This document shows, piece after piece, positions 14,691 to 52,814 of a stretch of 64,000 nucleotides of DNA. This DNA comes from Escherichia phage kaaroe. Every line of letters begins with the position of its first letter. Positions within the stretch are counted from its first letter, which is position 1. The stretch lies in sequence record MN850574.1; one strand, given 5' to 3'. The position numbers and the translations under genes are program-made. The notes under the pieces are model-generated. The model saw only the letters and a program-made list of their open reading frames with translations, made no database searches and was not told the origin of the DNA.

Positions 14691-14719
14691 TTGACTTCCA
14701 TAATCCATCATTGCATAAT
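14691..14719 (+). promoter_or_regulatory. sigma70-type early promoter
   Basis: TTGACT-17-CATAAT plus conserved leader ACACACATACC..AGGAGAATCAAAG, ATG 14751. Confidence 0.6.
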
Positions 14720-14750
14720 ACACACATACCAAACAAAAGGAGAATCAAAG

Positions 14751-15023
14751 ATGAACAACGAAAACAGCAAAGTGTTGGCAATTGCAGATAAAGTAGGTTA
14801 CTGGAAATGCTGGGATGATATGGAGAAATTAGGCGGTCGCTATCTCGATAACTTAGAGTTGCATTATTGCCAAGCGCGTAATGCAGAAGTTGCGGGAGTA
14901 GCAATCGAAGATATTCCGTCTAAAGTCTTCGGATTCTCTAAAGATGATACTCTAGAATATGTTTTCAAGGCTGTTATGGATCAAGCATGGGAAGACGCAG
15001 AGACACGCGCTCTTGACTGGTGA
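14751..15023 (+). CDS. hypothetical protein
   Basis: ATG 13 nt after conserved RBS cassette. Confidence 0.55.
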   Translation: MNNENSKVLAIADKVGYWKCWDDMEKLGGRYLDNLELHYCQARNAEVAGVAIEDIPSKVFGFSKDDTLEYVFKAVMDQAWEDAETRALDW

Positions 15024-15027
15024 TAAT

Positions 15028-15198
15028 ATGAACTGGTATAAAATTTGGAAAAATCAGGTGGAGGCTTATCTAGGGTATAAGCCAACCGACGAAGAATTAC
15101 TTGAAGCAATGTACGAAGACGGCTTAAATCCGAAAGTAGCCGCGCAAGAATACGCGGAATGGGTGAAGGTCGAAGATAACCTAAAGGGGAAACTATGA
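15028..15198 (+). CDS. hypothetical protein
   Basis: ATG 15028 just after upstream stop. Confidence 0.45.
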   Translation: MNWYKIWKNQVEAYLGYKPTDEELLEAMYEDGLNPKVAAQEYAEWVKVEDNLKGKL

Positions 15199-15395
15199 AG
15201 AAAATGATTGCGATTGCTTTGCTGGCTAGTGCATGTACGGTAAATGCTAATACCGCAGCGATGGTCGCGGCTGTAACTGCTGCAAATGCGTCTGTTATGG
15301 CATCGCAAGAGGCAGCACGCCAGCAAGCACAACAAGAAGCCCAGCGAAAAGCACATGAGGCGACGAAAAATTTCACGAAAATAACAAAAAACTAG
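15195..15395 (+). CDS. hypothetical secreted small protein
   Basis: N-terminal signal-peptide-like MKKMIAIALLASACTVNA; start overlaps upstream stop. Confidence 0.5.
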   Translation: MKKMIAIALLASACTVNANTAAMVAAVTAANASVMASQEAARQQAQQEAQRKAHEATKNFTKITKN

Positions 15396-15708: not shown

Positions 15709-15737
15709 TTGACGTAAAGATAAGGGAGTAGTAACAT
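15709..15737 (+). promoter_or_regulatory. sigma70-type early promoter with dyad over -10
   Basis: TTGACG-17-TAACAT; inverted repeat GGGAGTA/TACTCCC brackets the -10; ATG 15767. Confidence 0.55.
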
Positions 15738-15766
15738 ACTCCCATACCAAACGAAAGGAGAATCAC

Positions 15767-15976
15767 ATGAAATCTATCGAGCAAGTAGTAACAGAGTTTA
15801 TGAGCTACGAAGGAAACCGCATCTTTGGACGTTCTCAAGTTCGCGAGATCGTAGAAGAAGTTGCTGGAGAGTTTGCGGAATCTGGTCACATTATCACGCA
15901 AGAACGTAAAGAAGAAGCAGTAAACCAGATCATGGCTATACAGAAAATGCGTATTAATGCACGAGCGGGGGCTTAA
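15767..15976 (+). CDS. hypothetical protein
   Basis: ATG after AGGAGAATCA RBS. Confidence 0.55.
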   Translation: MKSIEQVVTEFMSYEGNRIFGRSQVREIVEEVAGEFAESGHIITQERKEEAVNQIMAIQKMRINARAGA

Positions 15977-15977
15977 A

Positions 15978-16277
15978 ATGAATTTTACCGATAAAGTTTT
16001 TGAAATTAGTCGCACTACTTCAATTAAAAATCTTAGGGCGGCTGCATTTATGGTTGATAAAGGGTTTAATATGGCATCGTCTGACGGTGTACCGTACTTT
16101 GCACCAACTTTCGTTGGCTGGATGACTGATCGTAAACGTGATTACACTAAAGCATATCCGCATATGGTACTTAGTAAAATTATCACTAAAGTGTATCCAC
16201 ATATGGTACTTAATGACGTTATCACGGACCACGATCACTTTACAAACTTTATTGTTTCCGGTGAATGGCGAAAATAA
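15978..16277 (+). CDS. hypothetical protein with internal direct repeat
   Basis: AYPHMVLSKIITKVYPHMVLNDVIT repeat; ATG 15978. Confidence 0.45.
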   Translation: MNFTDKVFEISRTTSIKNLRAAAFMVDKGFNMASSDGVPYFAPTFVGWMTDRKRDYTKAYPHMVLSKIITKVYPHMVLNDVITDHDHFTNFIVSGEWRK

Positions 16278-16288
16278 TTTAAAACTAG

Positions 16289-16317
16289 TTGACACCGGAT
16301 TAAGGGAGTAGTAACAT
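16289..16317 (+). promoter_or_regulatory. sigma70-type early promoter with dyad over -10
   Basis: TTGACA-17-TAACAT, GGGAGTA/TACTCCC dyad, ATG 16352. Confidence 0.55.
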
Positions 16318-16351
16318 ACTCCCATCAAGACAAAACACTGAGGAATATATT

Positions 16352-17110
16352 ATGAAAAACATTATCGCTGCTATCGTTCTTTCTGCTACTGCTTTCGGTG
16401 CTAACGCTGCGTCCTTTGATTGCGCTAAAGCTACTACCAAATCAGAGAAGTTTATTTGTGCTAATGAGTCTATCTCCGCACTGGACTCTAAACTTCATGA
16501 GGTGTATGTTAAGGCTGTTAAGATTGATCCGTCTCTGAAACAAGAGCAACGAAACTGGAATAAAACTGTTCGTGATACAATGATCAATATAGGGCAGATT
16601 CAGCCACTGGAGGCTGTATATAACGCTCAAATCCAAAACTTGATGAATGTATTACCTAAAGAAGAAACCGCGTCAGAAAGCGATTCAGAGACTTCTGCGA
16701 AGGTTGAAGAAGAACAACCGAAACAGGAAGCAAAAGTGGTAGAAGAACCGAAGGTCGAAACTTTTACCTATCAATGTACCGTTCGTTATGAGTGGAGTAT
16801 GAAAGATGGAATTTCCACAAAAATTAAAGAGGCTCCACTGTATGCAAAATATGGAAACCAGCCAGGGGATCTTAAAGTAACCATTAAAAATGGGAAGATG
16901 GTTGATTTTGTATACACTGATGAATACAACGTACACAAAGCAAACGTACAAGAAACCGTTATGACTAAAGGCGGGTTTTATAAGAATGTTGGCAAGAAAG
17001 ATCTATATGAATACTCCGTTTTCGAACCAAACGACGGAACTATTCGATTTGAAAAACGTCATCCTACATTCGGTGGAGCAATTGATGTAGATCAATACGT
17101 TTGCAAGTAA
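16352..17110 (+). CDS. secreted protein with LprI/DUF1311-like N-terminal domain
   Basis: Signal peptide MKNIIAAIVLSATAFGANA; FDCAKA..FICANE..LD..L..VY...Q..W...RD pattern. Confidence 0.6.
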   Translation: MKNIIAAIVLSATAFGANAASFDCAKATTKSEKFICANESISALDSKLHEVYVKAVKIDPSLKQEQRNWNKTVRDTMINIGQIQPLEAVYNAQIQNLMNVLPKEETASESDSETSAKVEEEQPKQEAKVVEEPKVETFTYQCTVRYEWSMKDGISTKIKEAPLYAKYGNQPGDLKVTIKNGKMVDFVYTDEYNVHKANVQETVMTKGGFYKNVGKKDLYEYSVFEPNDGTIRFEKRHPTFGGAIDVDQYVCK

Positions 17111-17121
17111 GAGGTTAAATT

Positions 17122-17409
17122 ATGCAATTCAATAACATGAAGATTACAAAAGATTGGTGGAAGGCGATGCAAGATACTCCAGAAACCAAATTAAGCGAGA
17201 CAACAACCACAATACAAGTTGATTACGAAGATCCGAAAGACATATACAGAGAGATTTTAATCAGAGAGCTTATAAAAGCTGGAAACTATCAAACACCAGA
17301 TGGCCTTATTGACATGATGGTTAAAGGTCTGTATAGTGGTAAAAATCCAGATATTTTACCGTGGTACGAGGGATATTTTAAAACATATCGTGACCACAAC
17401 CGAAAATAA
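17122..17409 (+). CDS. hypothetical protein
   Basis: SD GAGG before ATG 17122. Confidence 0.5.
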   Translation: MQFNNMKITKDWWKAMQDTPETKLSETTTTIQVDYEDPKDIYREILIRELIKAGNYQTPDGLIDMMVKGLYSGKNPDILPWYEGYFKTYRDHNRK

Positions 17410-20376: not shown

Positions 20377-23139
20377 TTAATTCTTTTTAAGTTCCGCTAG
20401 TTCAGCTTTAACGGCATTCAATTCTTCGCTCATTTCCTGAAACGCCTTAATTAAAAGAGCGTTGACAGCAGAGTTAGAAATTGTTAAGATCTCTTCTGGC
20501 TTATCGGGATCGCCGATGTTAGAAGTTGTTACTGCTTCCGGTAATTCTTTTTCAAGATCCTGAGCAATAATACCAACTTCATGAGCAATGACAGTACGGT
20601 CGGTTAAAGATTTAACCTTGTCATAGGTGTATACCGTCAAGCGATTAACTTTATCAGTGGCATTCTCCTTATACTCTTCCTTGTTGATTTTAAGGCGAGC
20701 ATCAGAGCGAATGTAAACGTCGTTAAAGTTACCATTGCGTCCAGCTTGGAAATCGCCGTTTTTATAGAAGGTAGTATTAGATTCAACACCAGAACCTTTA
20801 ACATGAACTCGCCATGAACCTTCATTAAGAAGCATACCCAACGAGAATGTTACTGCACCTTGAACATAACGTTGCTTGATCAAAGGAACATATGTAGACG
20901 CATCACCACGGTCTAAACGTTGGAAAATAGGTGCTTTGACGTTATCATCATGTTGAGATGCAAAAGAACCAGCACCCGCAGAACCAGAATCTATAGTAAT
21001 GACGCTAGCGCCGCGTTGAATAGCATTACCAAAATTCAGACTACCGCCTACGTTAGCATCGCTTCCGCTATAGAAAGAACCTGCAACAGAGAACTTAACC
21101 GGACCAGTTCCACCCGCAGTACGTTCGGTATACCAATGATAACTTGTTGCATCCGTACATTCAAAAACTTGTTTTCGTGATTCATTACCCCATGTATGGA
21201 GACTAAATTGCGAAGAAGAACCACGGTTAGCATGGAATGTAATTTCGCCAGATTCTACACGCACAAATCCTTTAAATCGCGCAGTAATTTCACCGGTTGC
21301 CATTTTACGTTCAGTTGTGAAGTGTGCACCGCTATTGTCTTCAAACTGCAAAATGTTATCACGGGCGTTATTGCTATCACCCCAATGGTTGATTTTAAAG
21401 AAATCACGAGATCCTAATCGTCCACTAGAGAAATGAAGGAAACCTTTTTCTACATAAACATCACCCGTAAAACGAGCGGCTTTGCTTGCACGTTCTAACG
21501 TTAATGCAGCTTCGTTACCGTCACCGCCTAATTGAACGTTACCGGAAGTCAAATCGTAAATGAATGGTCGGTTGCCGTTCCACCCACCAAAACGATCATT
21601 TTCGGCAGTAGAAAGAAGATAAACTTTAGTGCCGTCATTACGCCAGAATGCACCATAATTACCAAAGATCATACGGTATGCATCAGAATTGGCAGCTACA
21701 TATTGACCATTAGTGTATACAATTTTGGTTGCACCTGCGCTTAAAGATACTTGACCACTTGCTTCTAGCTTAACAAAGTTTTTACCTTCGTCACTATACC
21801 ATTGAAAATCGTTGGTTTCTGTAGAACCAAAACCAAACCAGCCTTGACGTTTATTAGCCCCGTCTCGCTGATCCATATATTCAAAATAGTTACTACAACC
21901 AGTAGGACGCCACATACGAATCGCGTTATTGCCTTGCAGATGAAGTCTATTGACAAATAAACCATCACTACCAACAATTTTTAATACTTCTTTTTGGTCG
22001 GTGGAACCAGTAGCCAAACGATACACATCACCTTGAACAGTTTCATGCCATATTGTTTCCGCCGCACGACTGCGGAATTTACGCATATATTTTTTATTGT
22101 TGTCTGGTACGTTATTAAGGCTCACAATATCATAGGTTGCTTGTGAGTTATTATCAAACATCAACGTTCCGGCTTTGTTTTCTGTGTTGAACATCGTAAT
22201 AACACGAGCATCAAATTTAGTTCCGGTTGCTGGTGCAGTCGCCGAAAATTCAGGAACATCATAAACAGTCAATGCGACGTCAACAGTTTTTCCAAACTCT
22301 ACAATAACGTTATCGGTGTAACGACCATAGTTAACATAAATGTCATAGTTATCACCGGAAGTATTAATTGCAAATACTTCATGGACGTTCAAAGAATTTC
22401 GACGATATGCAGCAATAGTAACACCTTTAGGATTTCCATTCCCACCACGAATCACGATTTCAAGGAAATCCACCTGGTCGTAGGATTTAACATTAAATCC
22501 GTTTCCACCATAGATACGAATAAATGCCATTTTTCCTTGCTGGGGGATCATTGCGGTTGCAATCTTAAAGTAGCCACGAGTTGCGTCACCGGAAGGAACA
22601 GACATTTTAACGTTCTTAACAAACATACGGTCAATTTCTTGTTTGCTATAAACGTTCAATTCTCCTGGAGTTGGTTTATCACCTTCGTGATACATTTTAT
22701 AACTAAATGCTTTTTGACCTTCTCTATTATAGCCATAAGTTTCTACACGCGATCCAGTGTGCCCATACTGGAAAGTAAATCCTCGACCATGTTGGACACC
22801 GGAAGAGTGAGGAACGTTTAGCGTGAGTTCGAGAAGACCATCAAGACCATTGGTACGGAAAGCGCCAAAGTAGTTAAGATCTCTCGCTGTCTGATCTTCC
22901 AGATAGTTAGCGGTTTTACTTAAGATATAATTATTACCTTTAACCTTACCCGCCATTGTAACATCGCGGTCATAAACCGGAGGACAACTTAAATTGATAA
23001 TAGTACCGGAATCATTTTTAGTAAGAAGATATTGATCCGCAAGGTTGATTGCCAATTCCCCCGGATTCATCGTACTAGCATCAGGTTTACGACCTTTAGT
23101 GCTAGTGCGTTTAAATTGGATTCTGCTTAAATCTGCCAT
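20377..23139 (-). CDS. 37: long tail fibre distal subunit gp37 with C-terminal intramolecular-chaperone-like domain
   Basis: N-terminus MADLSRIQFKR..GELAINL and GAGSFASQ..ASTYVPLIKQRYVQG match T4 gp37; C-terminal 100 aa resemble S74-type autoproteolytic chaperone domains. Confidence 0.9.
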   Translation of the reverse strand: MADLSRIQFKRTSTKGRKPDASTMNPGELAINLADQYLLTKNDSGTIINLSCPPVYDRDVTMAGKVKGNNYILSKTANYLEDQTARDLNYFGAFRTNGLDGLLELTLNVPHSSGVQHGRGFTFQYGHTGSRVETYGYNREGQKAFSYKMYHEGDKPTPGELNVYSKQEIDRMFVKNVKMSVPSGDATRGYFKIATAMIPQQGKMAFIRIYGGNGFNVKSYDQVDFLEIVIRGGNGNPKGVTIAAYRRNSLNVHEVFAINTSGDNYDIYVNYGRYTDNVIVEFGKTVDVALTVYDVPEFSATAPATGTKFDARVITMFNTENKAGTLMFDNNSQATYDIVSLNNVPDNNKKYMRKFRSRAAETIWHETVQGDVYRLATGSTDQKEVLKIVGSDGLFVNRLHLQGNNAIRMWRPTGCSNYFEYMDQRDGANKRQGWFGFGSTETNDFQWYSDEGKNFVKLEASGQVSLSAGATKIVYTNGQYVAANSDAYRMIFGNYGAFWRNDGTKVYLLSTAENDRFGGWNGNRPFIYDLTSGNVQLGGDGNEAALTLERASKAARFTGDVYVEKGFLHFSSGRLGSRDFFKINHWGDSNNARDNILQFEDNSGAHFTTERKMATGEITARFKGFVRVESGEITFHANRGSSSQFSLHTWGNESRKQVFECTDATSYHWYTERTAGGTGPVKFSVAGSFYSGSDANVGGSLNFGNAIQRGASVITIDSGSAGAGSFASQHDDNVKAPIFQRLDRGDASTYVPLIKQRYVQGAVTFSLGMLLNEGSWRVHVKGSGVESNTTFYKNGDFQAGRNGNFNDVYIRSDARLKINKEEYKENATDKVNRLTVYTYDKVKSLTDRTVIAHEVGIIAQDLEKELPEAVTTSNIGDPDKPEEILTISNSAVNALLIKAFQEMSEELNAVKAELAELKKN

Positions 23140-42638: not shown

Positions 42639-42667
42639 TTGACACTGAATAACGGGGGTAGTAAGAT
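42639..42667 (+). promoter_or_regulatory. sigma70-type early promoter with dyad over -10
   Basis: TTGACA-17-TAAGAT; GGGGGTA/TACTCCC dyad; ATG 42701. Confidence 0.55.
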
Positions 42668-42700
42668 ACTCCCATCGAAACGAAACAAAGGAGAATCAAA

Positions 42701-42919: not shown

Positions 42920-42948
42920 TTGACAGCATGAAACGGGGGTAGTAATAT
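42920..42948 (+). promoter_or_regulatory. sigma70-type early promoter with dyad over -10
   Basis: TTGACA-17-TAATAT; GGGGGTA/TACCCCC dyad; ATG 42987. Confidence 0.55.
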
Positions 42949-42986
42949 ACCCCCATCGAAACGAAATACACTTTAAGGAGAATCAA

Positions 42987-43144: not shown

Positions 43145-43173
43145 TTGACAGCATATCACGGGAGTAGTAAGAT
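43145..43173 (+). promoter_or_regulatory. sigma70-type early promoter with dyad over -10
   Basis: TTGACA-17-TAAGAT; GGGAGTA/TACTCCC dyad; ATG 43207. Confidence 0.55.
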
Positions 43174-43206
43174 ACTCCCATACCAAAACAACTAAGGAGT
43201 ATCAAG

Positions 43207-52753: not shown

Positions 52754-52782
52754 TTGACAATGATTAAAGGGAGTAGTAAGAT
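52754..52782 (+). promoter_or_regulatory. early promoter cassette
   Basis: TTGACA-17-TAAGAT with GGGAGTA/ TACTC remnant dyad, ATG 52815. Confidence 0.55.
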
Positions 52783-52814
52783 ACTCACATCAAGACAACA
52801 AACGGAGAATCAAA

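Follow-up and report, generated by a model that had tools for sequence, protein, structure and literature searches.

An LprI-domain protein with an interchangeable, predicted beta-barrel in Krischvirus phages and Escherichia coli prophages

The open reading frame (ORF) at positions 16352..17110 (+ strand) of the window, i.e., of the whole stretch of 64,000 nt from Escherichia phage kaaroe (MN850574.1) that was analyzed, comprises 252 codons from an ATG start and encodes a protein of 252 aa, which is predicted to be exported and to join a near-invariant LprI/DUF1311 domain to a C-terminal beta-barrel. The barrel occurs in about nine discrete alleles, is exchanged as a cassette, and is shared by lytic T4-like phages of the genus Krischvirus and by prophages of E. 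coli. By analogy to known systems, we tentatively propose that the protein acts in the periplasm as an inhibitor of muralytic enzymes that reach the cell wall from the outside and is possibly an analogue of the T4 protein Spackle with an exchangeable specificity module, a reading that falls somewhat short of probable.

The window is 96-99% identical to RB49-like, T4-type coliphages (genus Krischvirus, family Straboviridae), in which the ORF corresponds to RB49p262, annotated as a hypothetical protein. Homologues were found in 56-58 Krischvirus genomes, and due to this conservation the ORF represents a real gene rather than a chance ORF. Its product was assigned to phrog_14799 of the PHROGs database (function unknown). 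The copies in E. coli are named "lysozyme inhibitor LprI family protein" by NCBI, and a survey of 2006 already reported a weak DUF1311 match (E 0.2) for RB49 ORF 260c (PMC1524935), which is probably the homologue of the ORF described here. Thus the LprI annotation is already public and by itself carries no novelty. Novelty lies in the predicted barrel and its LprI-type pairing, the discrete alleles with mapped cassette boundaries, the sharing between lytic phages and prophages, and a genomic context that combines an M15 endolysin with the lack of Spackle.

Domain organization of the protein

Residues 1 to 19 (MKNIIAAIVLSATAFGANA, followed by ASFDC) display the features of a Sec signal peptide, namely a lysine at position 2, a hydrophobic core at positions 4-15, and an A-x-A site in agreement with the -3/-1 rule after residue 19. 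This call is a simple-rule heuristic and not a SignalP prediction; the same rule-based analysis detected neither a lipobox nor a further hydrophobic or transmembrane-like segment in the ORF product. From the sequence we infer export of the protein and disulfide formation, and the signal peptide noticed in the initial annotation is retained on these grounds.

Membership in the LprI family was judged by whether the score of the profile hidden Markov model (HMM) reached the curated gathering threshold. The Pfam profile LprI (PF07007) matched residues 24-76 with 25.9 bits (cut-off 22, E 1.4e-5), so that the DUF1311 resemblance first proposed from a residue pattern was borne out by the profile. Relatives also scored above the cut-off, with 26.4 bits for P0019, 25.3 for P0009, 23.1 for the protein of Klebsiella phage PWKp18, and 28.4 for that of Aeromonas phage CC2. 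In the full-length AlphaFold model, residues 30-98 form a helical bundle with a predicted local distance difference test (pLDDT) score of ~62-79, and this N-terminal domain is a compact helical bundle as in the solved DUF1311 protein 3gi7. Only two cysteines, C24 and C36, are located inside the domain, compared to four in ScwA of Salmonella and its relatives. The HMM match covers profile positions 1-71 of 106 and ends there, and the position after the W...RD motif is occupied by M77 and not by a cysteine. The domain is followed by a linker with a pLDDT below 50 at residues 104-132, an isoelectric point of 4.4, and a net charge of -6.

Behind the linker, the model displays a beta-rich domain (residues 135-251, pLDDT ~88), which is confidently predicted to be an eight-stranded antiparallel beta-barrel as in the MliC/PliC inhibitors. 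The C-terminal domain of ~130 aa that had been recognized from the sequence corresponds to these 118 aa (residues 135-252) after the acidic linker. C142 (YQC) and C251 (YVC) do not vary between the alleles and lie in the first and last predicted strands, respectively. A cysteine on strand 1 (YxC) together with one on the last strand is common to the phage barrel, MliC (YQC...NNC), PliC, and PhiA (C76-C154), a disulfide between the two being probable in the phage barrel. Including the pair of the LprI domain, both cysteine pairs of the ORF product are invariant in all relatives.

The solved structures with the lowest root-mean-square deviation (rmsd) to the barrel are the hydrolase inhibitors PliC, MliC, PhiA, and ACP, of which PhiA is the closest. 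Comparable scores were obtained for barrels of outer membrane proteins, lipocalins, avidin, and designed proteins, and thus the structural match indicates a fold class and not homology. A Foldseek search of the barrel against the PDB yielded no match at E <=1e-3, the best matches being barrels of NHBA, LolA, fatty acid-binding proteins, and TbpB. A profile search of 1.84 billion representatives with the barrel gave five matches, comprising two relatives of the ORF product, one fragment, and two repeat-protein artefacts. As far as sequence profiles can tell, the barrel is essentially confined to this protein family.

Allelic variation of the barrel

Among the homologues, 112-119 of the first 120 residues are identical, and the first ~134 codons stay at 93-99% identity, with the metagenomic relative P0020 as an outlier (100/120). 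The barrels, on the other hand, fall into about nine alleles in four groups (Table 1) with 20-56% identity between alleles. Allele A is found in 44 out of 56 Krischvirus records, at 95-99% identity, and the other 12 contain an allele of ~36% identity; intermediates do not occur. An arms race over specificity would be expected to yield this kind of pattern, a polymorphic, exchangeable barrel on a near-identical N-terminal part.

At the DNA level, the 5' arm is 93.5-97% identical to Phi1, UPWr_E1, and JSE from 16276 onwards, and this identity ends at 16753-16759. Over 16754-17117, blastn gave no match to Phi1, UPWr_E1, JSE, or the E. coli prophages. Identity to UPWr_E1 resumes at 17118 with 98%. 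With this sharp loss and return of identity, the pattern is one of exchange of the barrel as a cassette between conserved arms and not of gradual divergence.

The downstream gene ORF261 occurs in two alleles of ~48% identity, one in the window, RB49, and UPWr_E1 and the other in Phi1 and JSE. Phages with allele A and UPWr_E1 (B1) share ORF261 at 97-98% identity, and the copies of Phi1 (C1) and JSE (D1) are alike. Since the ORF261 alleles do not pair one-to-one with the barrel types, a toxin-immunity pair formed by the variable C-terminal domain and ORF261 was rejected. Scans of IMG/VR and of metagenomes gave no alleles beyond the known families, and no matches were obtained in a scan of GTDB representative genomes.

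Copies in E. coli prophages and other phages

A chromosomal copy was identified in 26 out of 5426 complete E. coli genomes. The first 371-408 nt of these copies are 94-96% identical to the window (94-95% from 16346). In the copies with inspected surroundings, the gene is the terminal one of a prophage that has integrated in hicB and left it truncated, and the neighbours are prophage genes and hicAB. Copies from IMG/VR are likewise located at the ends of viral contigs, which are ~23-36 kb long. E. coli strains differ in the prophage allele and carry B2, C2, or D2. Barrel alleles are common to lytic Krischvirus phages and hicB-integrated E. coli prophages, and this allele traffic between a strictly lytic genus and prophages offers a clean case of gene flow between lifestyles.

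In case of strains H2 and DEC5A, the two prophage copies in which it was detected, ~75 nt past the stop codon are 81-90% identical to the start of ORF261; for the window interval 17106/17118-17194, identity to the E. coli prophages is 81-82%. This remnant is non-coding in the prophages and suggests, on the basis of the sequence, that the prophage module derived from a Krischvirus-like context.

Relatives in Marfavirus and in Aeromonas phage CC2 possess the same signal peptide, LprI domain, and linker, joined to unrelated C-terminal domains with a cysteine pair. Signal peptide, LprI domain, and linker may thus represent a general platform in T4-like phages.

Proposed function and alternatives

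If the protein inhibits muralytic enzymes, its gene would be transcribed early from the promoter of the PeSL cassette directly upstream (see Genomic setting and expression signals), and the product would be exported by the Sec pathway, lose its signal peptide of 19 residues, and reach the periplasm, where it would be soluble, have a mass of ~26.5 kDa, and probably carry two disulfides. After processing, it would consist of the near-invariant helical LprI domain, a flexible acidic tether, and the eight-stranded barrel. It would bind and neutralize externally acting muralytic enzymes, the likeliest being tail lysozymes of phages that superinfect the infected cell or the lysogen. Such cells would thereby exclude superinfecting phages and resist lysis from without, in the way known for Spackle but by means of an unrelated fold. 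The LprI module would provide the constant function by binding a conserved target (e.g., a GH24 lysozyme) or the wall itself, and the barrel would be an exchangeable specificity module, rendered polymorphic by antagonistic co-evolution. Each step of binding and inhibition, as well as the identity of the target, is what we infer from these parallels. About half of the weight that we give to this reading belongs to phage tail lysozymes, and the rest falls to other exogenous or endogenous peptidoglycan hydrolases.

Spackle of T4 inhibits the tail lysozyme gp5 and thereby causes superinfection exclusion (PMC7677548). Homologues of Spackle are present in 734 other phage records. None is annotated in RB49, and a tblastn search with the Spackle proteins of T4 and PWKp18 against the window and the RB49 segments gave chance matches only (best E 0.065 within gene 41, none in the ORF). 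A hidden Spackle in Krischvirus was rejected on both counts. Gp5 of RB49 contains a Phage_lysozyme domain of the T4 type. The RB49 endolysin p102 (14719-15108 of segment L009) matches Peptidase_M15_4 with 46.9 bits and is no T4-type lysozyme. With an M15 peptidase as endolysin, the phage would not be hindered in its own lysis by a muramidase inhibitor. The suggestion of the initial annotation that the protein could be a functional analogue of Spackle is in agreement with this Spackle vacancy next to a gp5 lysozyme domain, and is weakened by phages that carry both proteins (see below). Its placement in a region equivalent to that of Spackle has to be corrected: sp of T4 is situated between genes 41 and 61, and the ORF between gene 52 and t.

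Several observations weigh against a lysozyme-inhibiting protein. MliC and PliC plug the active site of lysozyme with their SGxxY and (S/T)KG loops. SGxxY is present in no barrel allele and (S/T)KG is not conserved; the TKGGFY of allele A is not kept in alleles B-D. Pfam MliC (PF09864) was not matched by the whole protein or by any of 11 C-domain alleles at E values up to 10. Hhalign of the barrel alignment with an MliC alignment, which is shallow since all retrieved MliC homologues are >=80% identical, gave a probability of 0.6% (E 0.097, 26 columns), and a profile search of PDB sequences with the barrel retrieved no MliC or PliC. True homology to MliC, considered because YQC, FVYxD, and TKG occur in both, was rejected as unsupported on these three results, and the resemblance is retained at the level of the fold. 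D-type barrels share the first-strand motif, the length, and the cysteine pair with types A-C, and homology to these types beyond the first strand could not be demonstrated. SGxxY is missing from PhiA as well, which failed to inhibit its proposed target, a muramidase resembling T4 lysozyme, in vitro (PMC8334348).

Further points of this kind concern the LprI domain and the proposed targets. On its own, the LprI domain has never been shown to inhibit lysozyme. In LprI of Mycobacterium tuberculosis, which consists of an LprI and an MliC domain, lysozyme inhibition is credited to the MliC domain, and the LprI-domain protein ScwA of Salmonella controls the levels of MltD and has no role against lysozyme (PMC7933661). 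Thus the step from LprI motif to lysozyme inhibitor taken in the initial annotation is weak if based on the motif alone, although the family membership stands. No functional study of any phage LprI protein was found in the literature. The lysozyme domain of gp5 is 98.8-100% identical (mostly 100%) across Krischvirus, irrespective of the barrel allele, and consequently barrel diversity does not follow the gp5 of the phage itself. Tracking of this enzyme by the barrel was therefore dismissed; the equally invariant LprI domain could be tracking it. Klebsiella phages of the genus Marfavirus encode Spackle and an LprI-domain protein together, and hence the two proteins are no simple substitutes for each other. 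On the other side, the structural model suggests that the phage protein pairs the same two domain types as LprI of M. tuberculosis, i.e., an LprI domain and an MliC-type barrel. The reading is also favoured by DUF1311 proteins that serve, or are predicted to serve, as periplasmic immunity proteins against peptidoglycan-hydrolase effectors of type VI secretion (see below), by the signal peptide lacking a lipobox or anchor, by the early promoter, by the terminal accessory position in the prophage, and by the polymorphism of the barrel.

It is tempting to speculate that the protein represents a polymorphic periplasmic exclusion or immunity determinant of an undescribed kind, in which a constant LprI handle is combined with interchangeable barrel cassettes. 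These would recombine between conserved arms and move back and forth between T4-like phages of lytic lifestyle and temperate E. coli prophages, each allele being directed against a different incoming muralytic weapon or tail component. In this full form, we consider the proposal rather doubtful.

The barrel might instead exclude other phages by a non-enzymatic route, namely by binding the tail tip, the tape-measure protein, or the periplasmic face of an outer-membrane receptor and blocking DNA entry or adsorption in the manner of T5 Llp or Cor-type proteins. Small barrels are versatile binders, and structural neighbours include barrels of the NHBA, fHbp, and TbpB type; furthermore, the discrete polymorphism and the position at the prophage end suit exclusion determinants, and the catalytic-site motifs of MliC are missing. 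However, the tail-fibre tip is common to the window and FL38 (allele A) and to MIZ2/3/6 (allele C1), so that the allele does not co-vary with the tip of the same phage. Masking of the phage's own receptor is weakened by the same observation. The protein is also predicted to be soluble and no lipoprotein, and its LprI domain would be left without a role. Altogether, this explanation appears improbable.

The same low probability is assigned to an orphan immunity protein against muralytic effectors of bacterial type VI secretion systems (T6SS) or against bacteriocins, with each barrel allele serving for another effector family. The DUF1311 protein Etsi4 of enterohaemorrhagic E. coli (EHEC) rescues the toxicity of Etse4 and is an experimentally established T6SS immunity protein (PMC12981562), and other DUF1311 T6SS immunity proteins were predicted from synteny (PMC9796082; PMC8867033). 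Nevertheless, neither a T6SS gene nor an effector was located next to any phage or E. coli copy in the neighbourhoods inspected, and the barrel was found nowhere beyond these phages. Moreover, a benefit is doubtful for a lytic phage with a short cycle, yet the gene is retained behind an early promoter in at least 56 Krischvirus genomes.

Another role, e.g., that of a lipocalin-like binder for a small ligand or of a counter to host or prophage defences in the periplasm or inner membrane, would render the LprI resemblance uninformative. It is no more probable than the preceding two, since positive evidence for a ligand or a defence target is lacking and the pairing of LprI with an MliC-like barrel is hard to call coincidence. 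A component of a known defence system was rejected due to the lack of a meaningful PADLOC match.

Least probable is a modulator of the peptidoglycan hydrolases of the host, comparable to ScwA or PhiA, which would bind lytic transglycosylases or endopeptidases and thereby stabilize the wall, e.g., during lysis inhibition, or tune the timing of lysis. In its favour, ScwA as a periplasmic LprI-domain protein with two disulfides controls MltD and not lysozyme resistance. PhiA, which comes closest to the barrel among the low-rmsd neighbours, has a genetic link to SagA, an endogenous muramidase, and the distance of the gene to the holin gene t is ~2.3 kb. Against it, the hydrolases are conserved in E. 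coli and leave about nine alleles unexplained, the architecture of ScwA with its C-terminal LprI domain differs, and the proximity of t, which lies on the opposite strand, reflects the hyperplastic region and no operon.

Genomic setting and expression signals

The gene sits in a hyperplastic block of small early genes that extends from the topoisomerase gene 52 to the holin gene t, and its neighbours in the phages are small early genes of unknown function. The 35-nt PeSL consensus has an exact match 29 nt 5' of the ATG (Table 1). In RB49 and phi1, PeSL is a strong sigma-70-like early promoter combined with a stem-loop and acts as a mobile regulatory cassette (PMC2839356). The promoter upstream of the ORF agrees with the consensus at 10 of 12 positions in the promoter scan, and a folding energy of -13 kcal/mol was calculated for the hairpin. 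Six copies of the motif occur in the window compared to none expected. With the cassette directly upstream, the ORF fits the PeSL-associated genes of Krischvirus hyperplastic regions, and due to this early-promoter cassette the early expression assumed in the initial annotation is plausible, the timing being taken from the PeSL literature (PMC2839356).

Table 1. Features of the gene at 16352..17110, its expression signals, and its relatives. Positions refer to the window unless a segment is named.
Feature	Position	Strand	Basis	Remarks
PeSL cassette: sigma-70-type early promoter (TTGACA, 17-nt spacer, TAACAT) with stem-loop GGGAGTA-GTAACA-TACTCCC overlapping the -10 element	16289..16323	+	promoter scan, motif count, folding	
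PeSL copies (TTGACA, 9 nt, GGGAGTAGTAACATACTCCC)	15709-15743, 16289-16323, 42639-42673, 42920-42954, 43145-43179, 52754-52788		motif search of the window	six copies
Shine-Dalgarno sequence GAGGA	16340..16344	+	read from sequence	7 nt 5' of ATG
Sec (signal peptidase I) signal peptide, aa 1-19	16352..16408	+	rule-based analysis	predicted cleavage between ANA and AS
LprI/DUF1311 helical domain, aa 20-101	16409..16654	+		Cys24/Cys36 pair; near-invariant in relatives
Acidic, E/K/P/S-rich disordered linker, aa 102-134	16655..16753	+	AlphaFold pLDDT, composition, alignment	allele-dependent length
Polymorphic C-terminal domain, aa 135-252 (118 aa), predicted 8-stranded antiparallel beta-barrel	16754..17107	+		bounded by invariant Cys142 and Cys251; window carries allele A
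Conserved 5' recombination arm (PeSL, signal peptide, LprI domain, linker)	16276..16753	+	DNA comparison	
Exchanged cassette	16754..17117	+	blastn	no detectable DNA similarity between carriers of different alleles
3' arm, downstream gene ORF261 (17122-17409)	17118..17409	+	DNA comparison	co-transcribed
Barrel group A				window and RB49
Barrel group B				B1 (UPWr_E1), B2
Barrel group C				C1 (Phi1), C2, a variant
Barrel group D				D1 (JSE), D2, D3
E. coli chromosomal prophage copies	L005 9001-9771; L006 9001-9780; L003 8001-8795			three different barrel alleles
LprI fusion of Klebsiella phage PWKp18	L002 4001-4753			Spackle gene 2 kb away
LprI fusion of Aeromonas phage CC2	L012 2474-3193			

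Upstream of the gene, an ORF of 106 aa (15957-16277) is flanked by PeSL on either side and is absent from most Krischvirus genomes including RB49; only seven records cover query positions 1-276, the region of this ORF. It contains a 39-bp tandem duplication at 16141-16225, by which the peptide YPHMVL is repeated, and looks like a PeSL-mediated cassette insertion. A further ORF of 66 aa (15195-15395), starting with MKKMIAIALLASACTVNA, apparently encodes another small secreted protein, in which a non-canonical lipobox is possible; no Pfam match was obtained for it. The best sigma-70-like match nearby (17309-17337; TTGACA, 17-nt spacer, TATAGT; 11/12) is located within ORF261, just 5' of the next small ORF.

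With regard to the tail fibres, the distal long-tail-fibre gene of the window (20377-23139, - strand) encodes 920 aa compared to 979 aa in RB49. Over its C-terminal 250 aa, the product agrees with that of FL38 at every residue and with those of MIZ2/3/6 at 93-97%; only ~140 aa align with RB49, at 82%. The sequence comparison indicates that the receptor-binding tip of the window differs from that of the type phage.

Significance

To our knowledge, the mechanism of superinfection exclusion in T4-like phages is understood only for Imm and Spackle of T4. If the protein is a counterpart of Spackle, T4-like phages would have evolved periplasmic inhibition of muramidases on two or more occasions, from folds that are not related. 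The protein would also offer a tractable model for the orphan LprI/DUF1311 domain, and about nine barrel alleles would provide a natural set for mapping the specificity of hydrolase inhibitors. Cocktails for phage therapy make wide use of RB49-like phages, and the alleles could affect phage combinations in such cocktails as well as the infection of lysogens.

Comparison with known systems

Among the known systems, the lysozyme inhibitor LprI (Rv1541c) of M. tuberculosis is similar to the phage protein in being exported and in combining an LprI/DUF1311 domain with a small MliC-type barrel. It differs in being a glycosylated lipoprotein whose second domain is a genuine Pfam MliC domain, whereas the phage protein has a signal-peptidase-I site, an acidic linker of ~30 residues, and a polymorphic barrel with neither an MliC sequence match nor SGxxY. 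Compared to the MliC/PliC family (PF09864), which includes PhiA of Brucella, and to ACP of Neisseria, the phage domain is ~30 residues longer and has an insertion behind strand 1. It is joined to an LprI domain and occurs in deeply diverged alleles without significant sequence or profile similarity to these inhibitors.

ScwA of Salmonella is, as predicted for the phage protein, a soluble periplasmic LprI-domain protein and is stabilized by two disulfides. In contrast to the phage protein, it is all-helical, carries its LprI domain C-terminally, regulates MltD, and is encoded on the chromosome. The DUF1311 T6SS immunity proteins (Etsi4, SED_RS06230 of Salmonella Dublin, and the products of orphan immunity genes of Pantoea) share the signal peptide and the LprI/DUF1311 domain with the phage protein and are directed against cell-wall effectors that act in the periplasm. 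They are, however, single-domain proteins of ~120-150 aa encoded beside the effector in T6SS islands, whereas the phage protein possesses a barrel and no effector neighbour.

Spackle (gp61.3) of T4 and the phage protein resemble each other as products of early genes with a periplasmic location (shown for Spackle, predicted here), disulfides (probable here), and a helical bundle as the conserved part. Without sequence similarity to the phage protein, Spackle is a highly conserved single domain of 75 aa.

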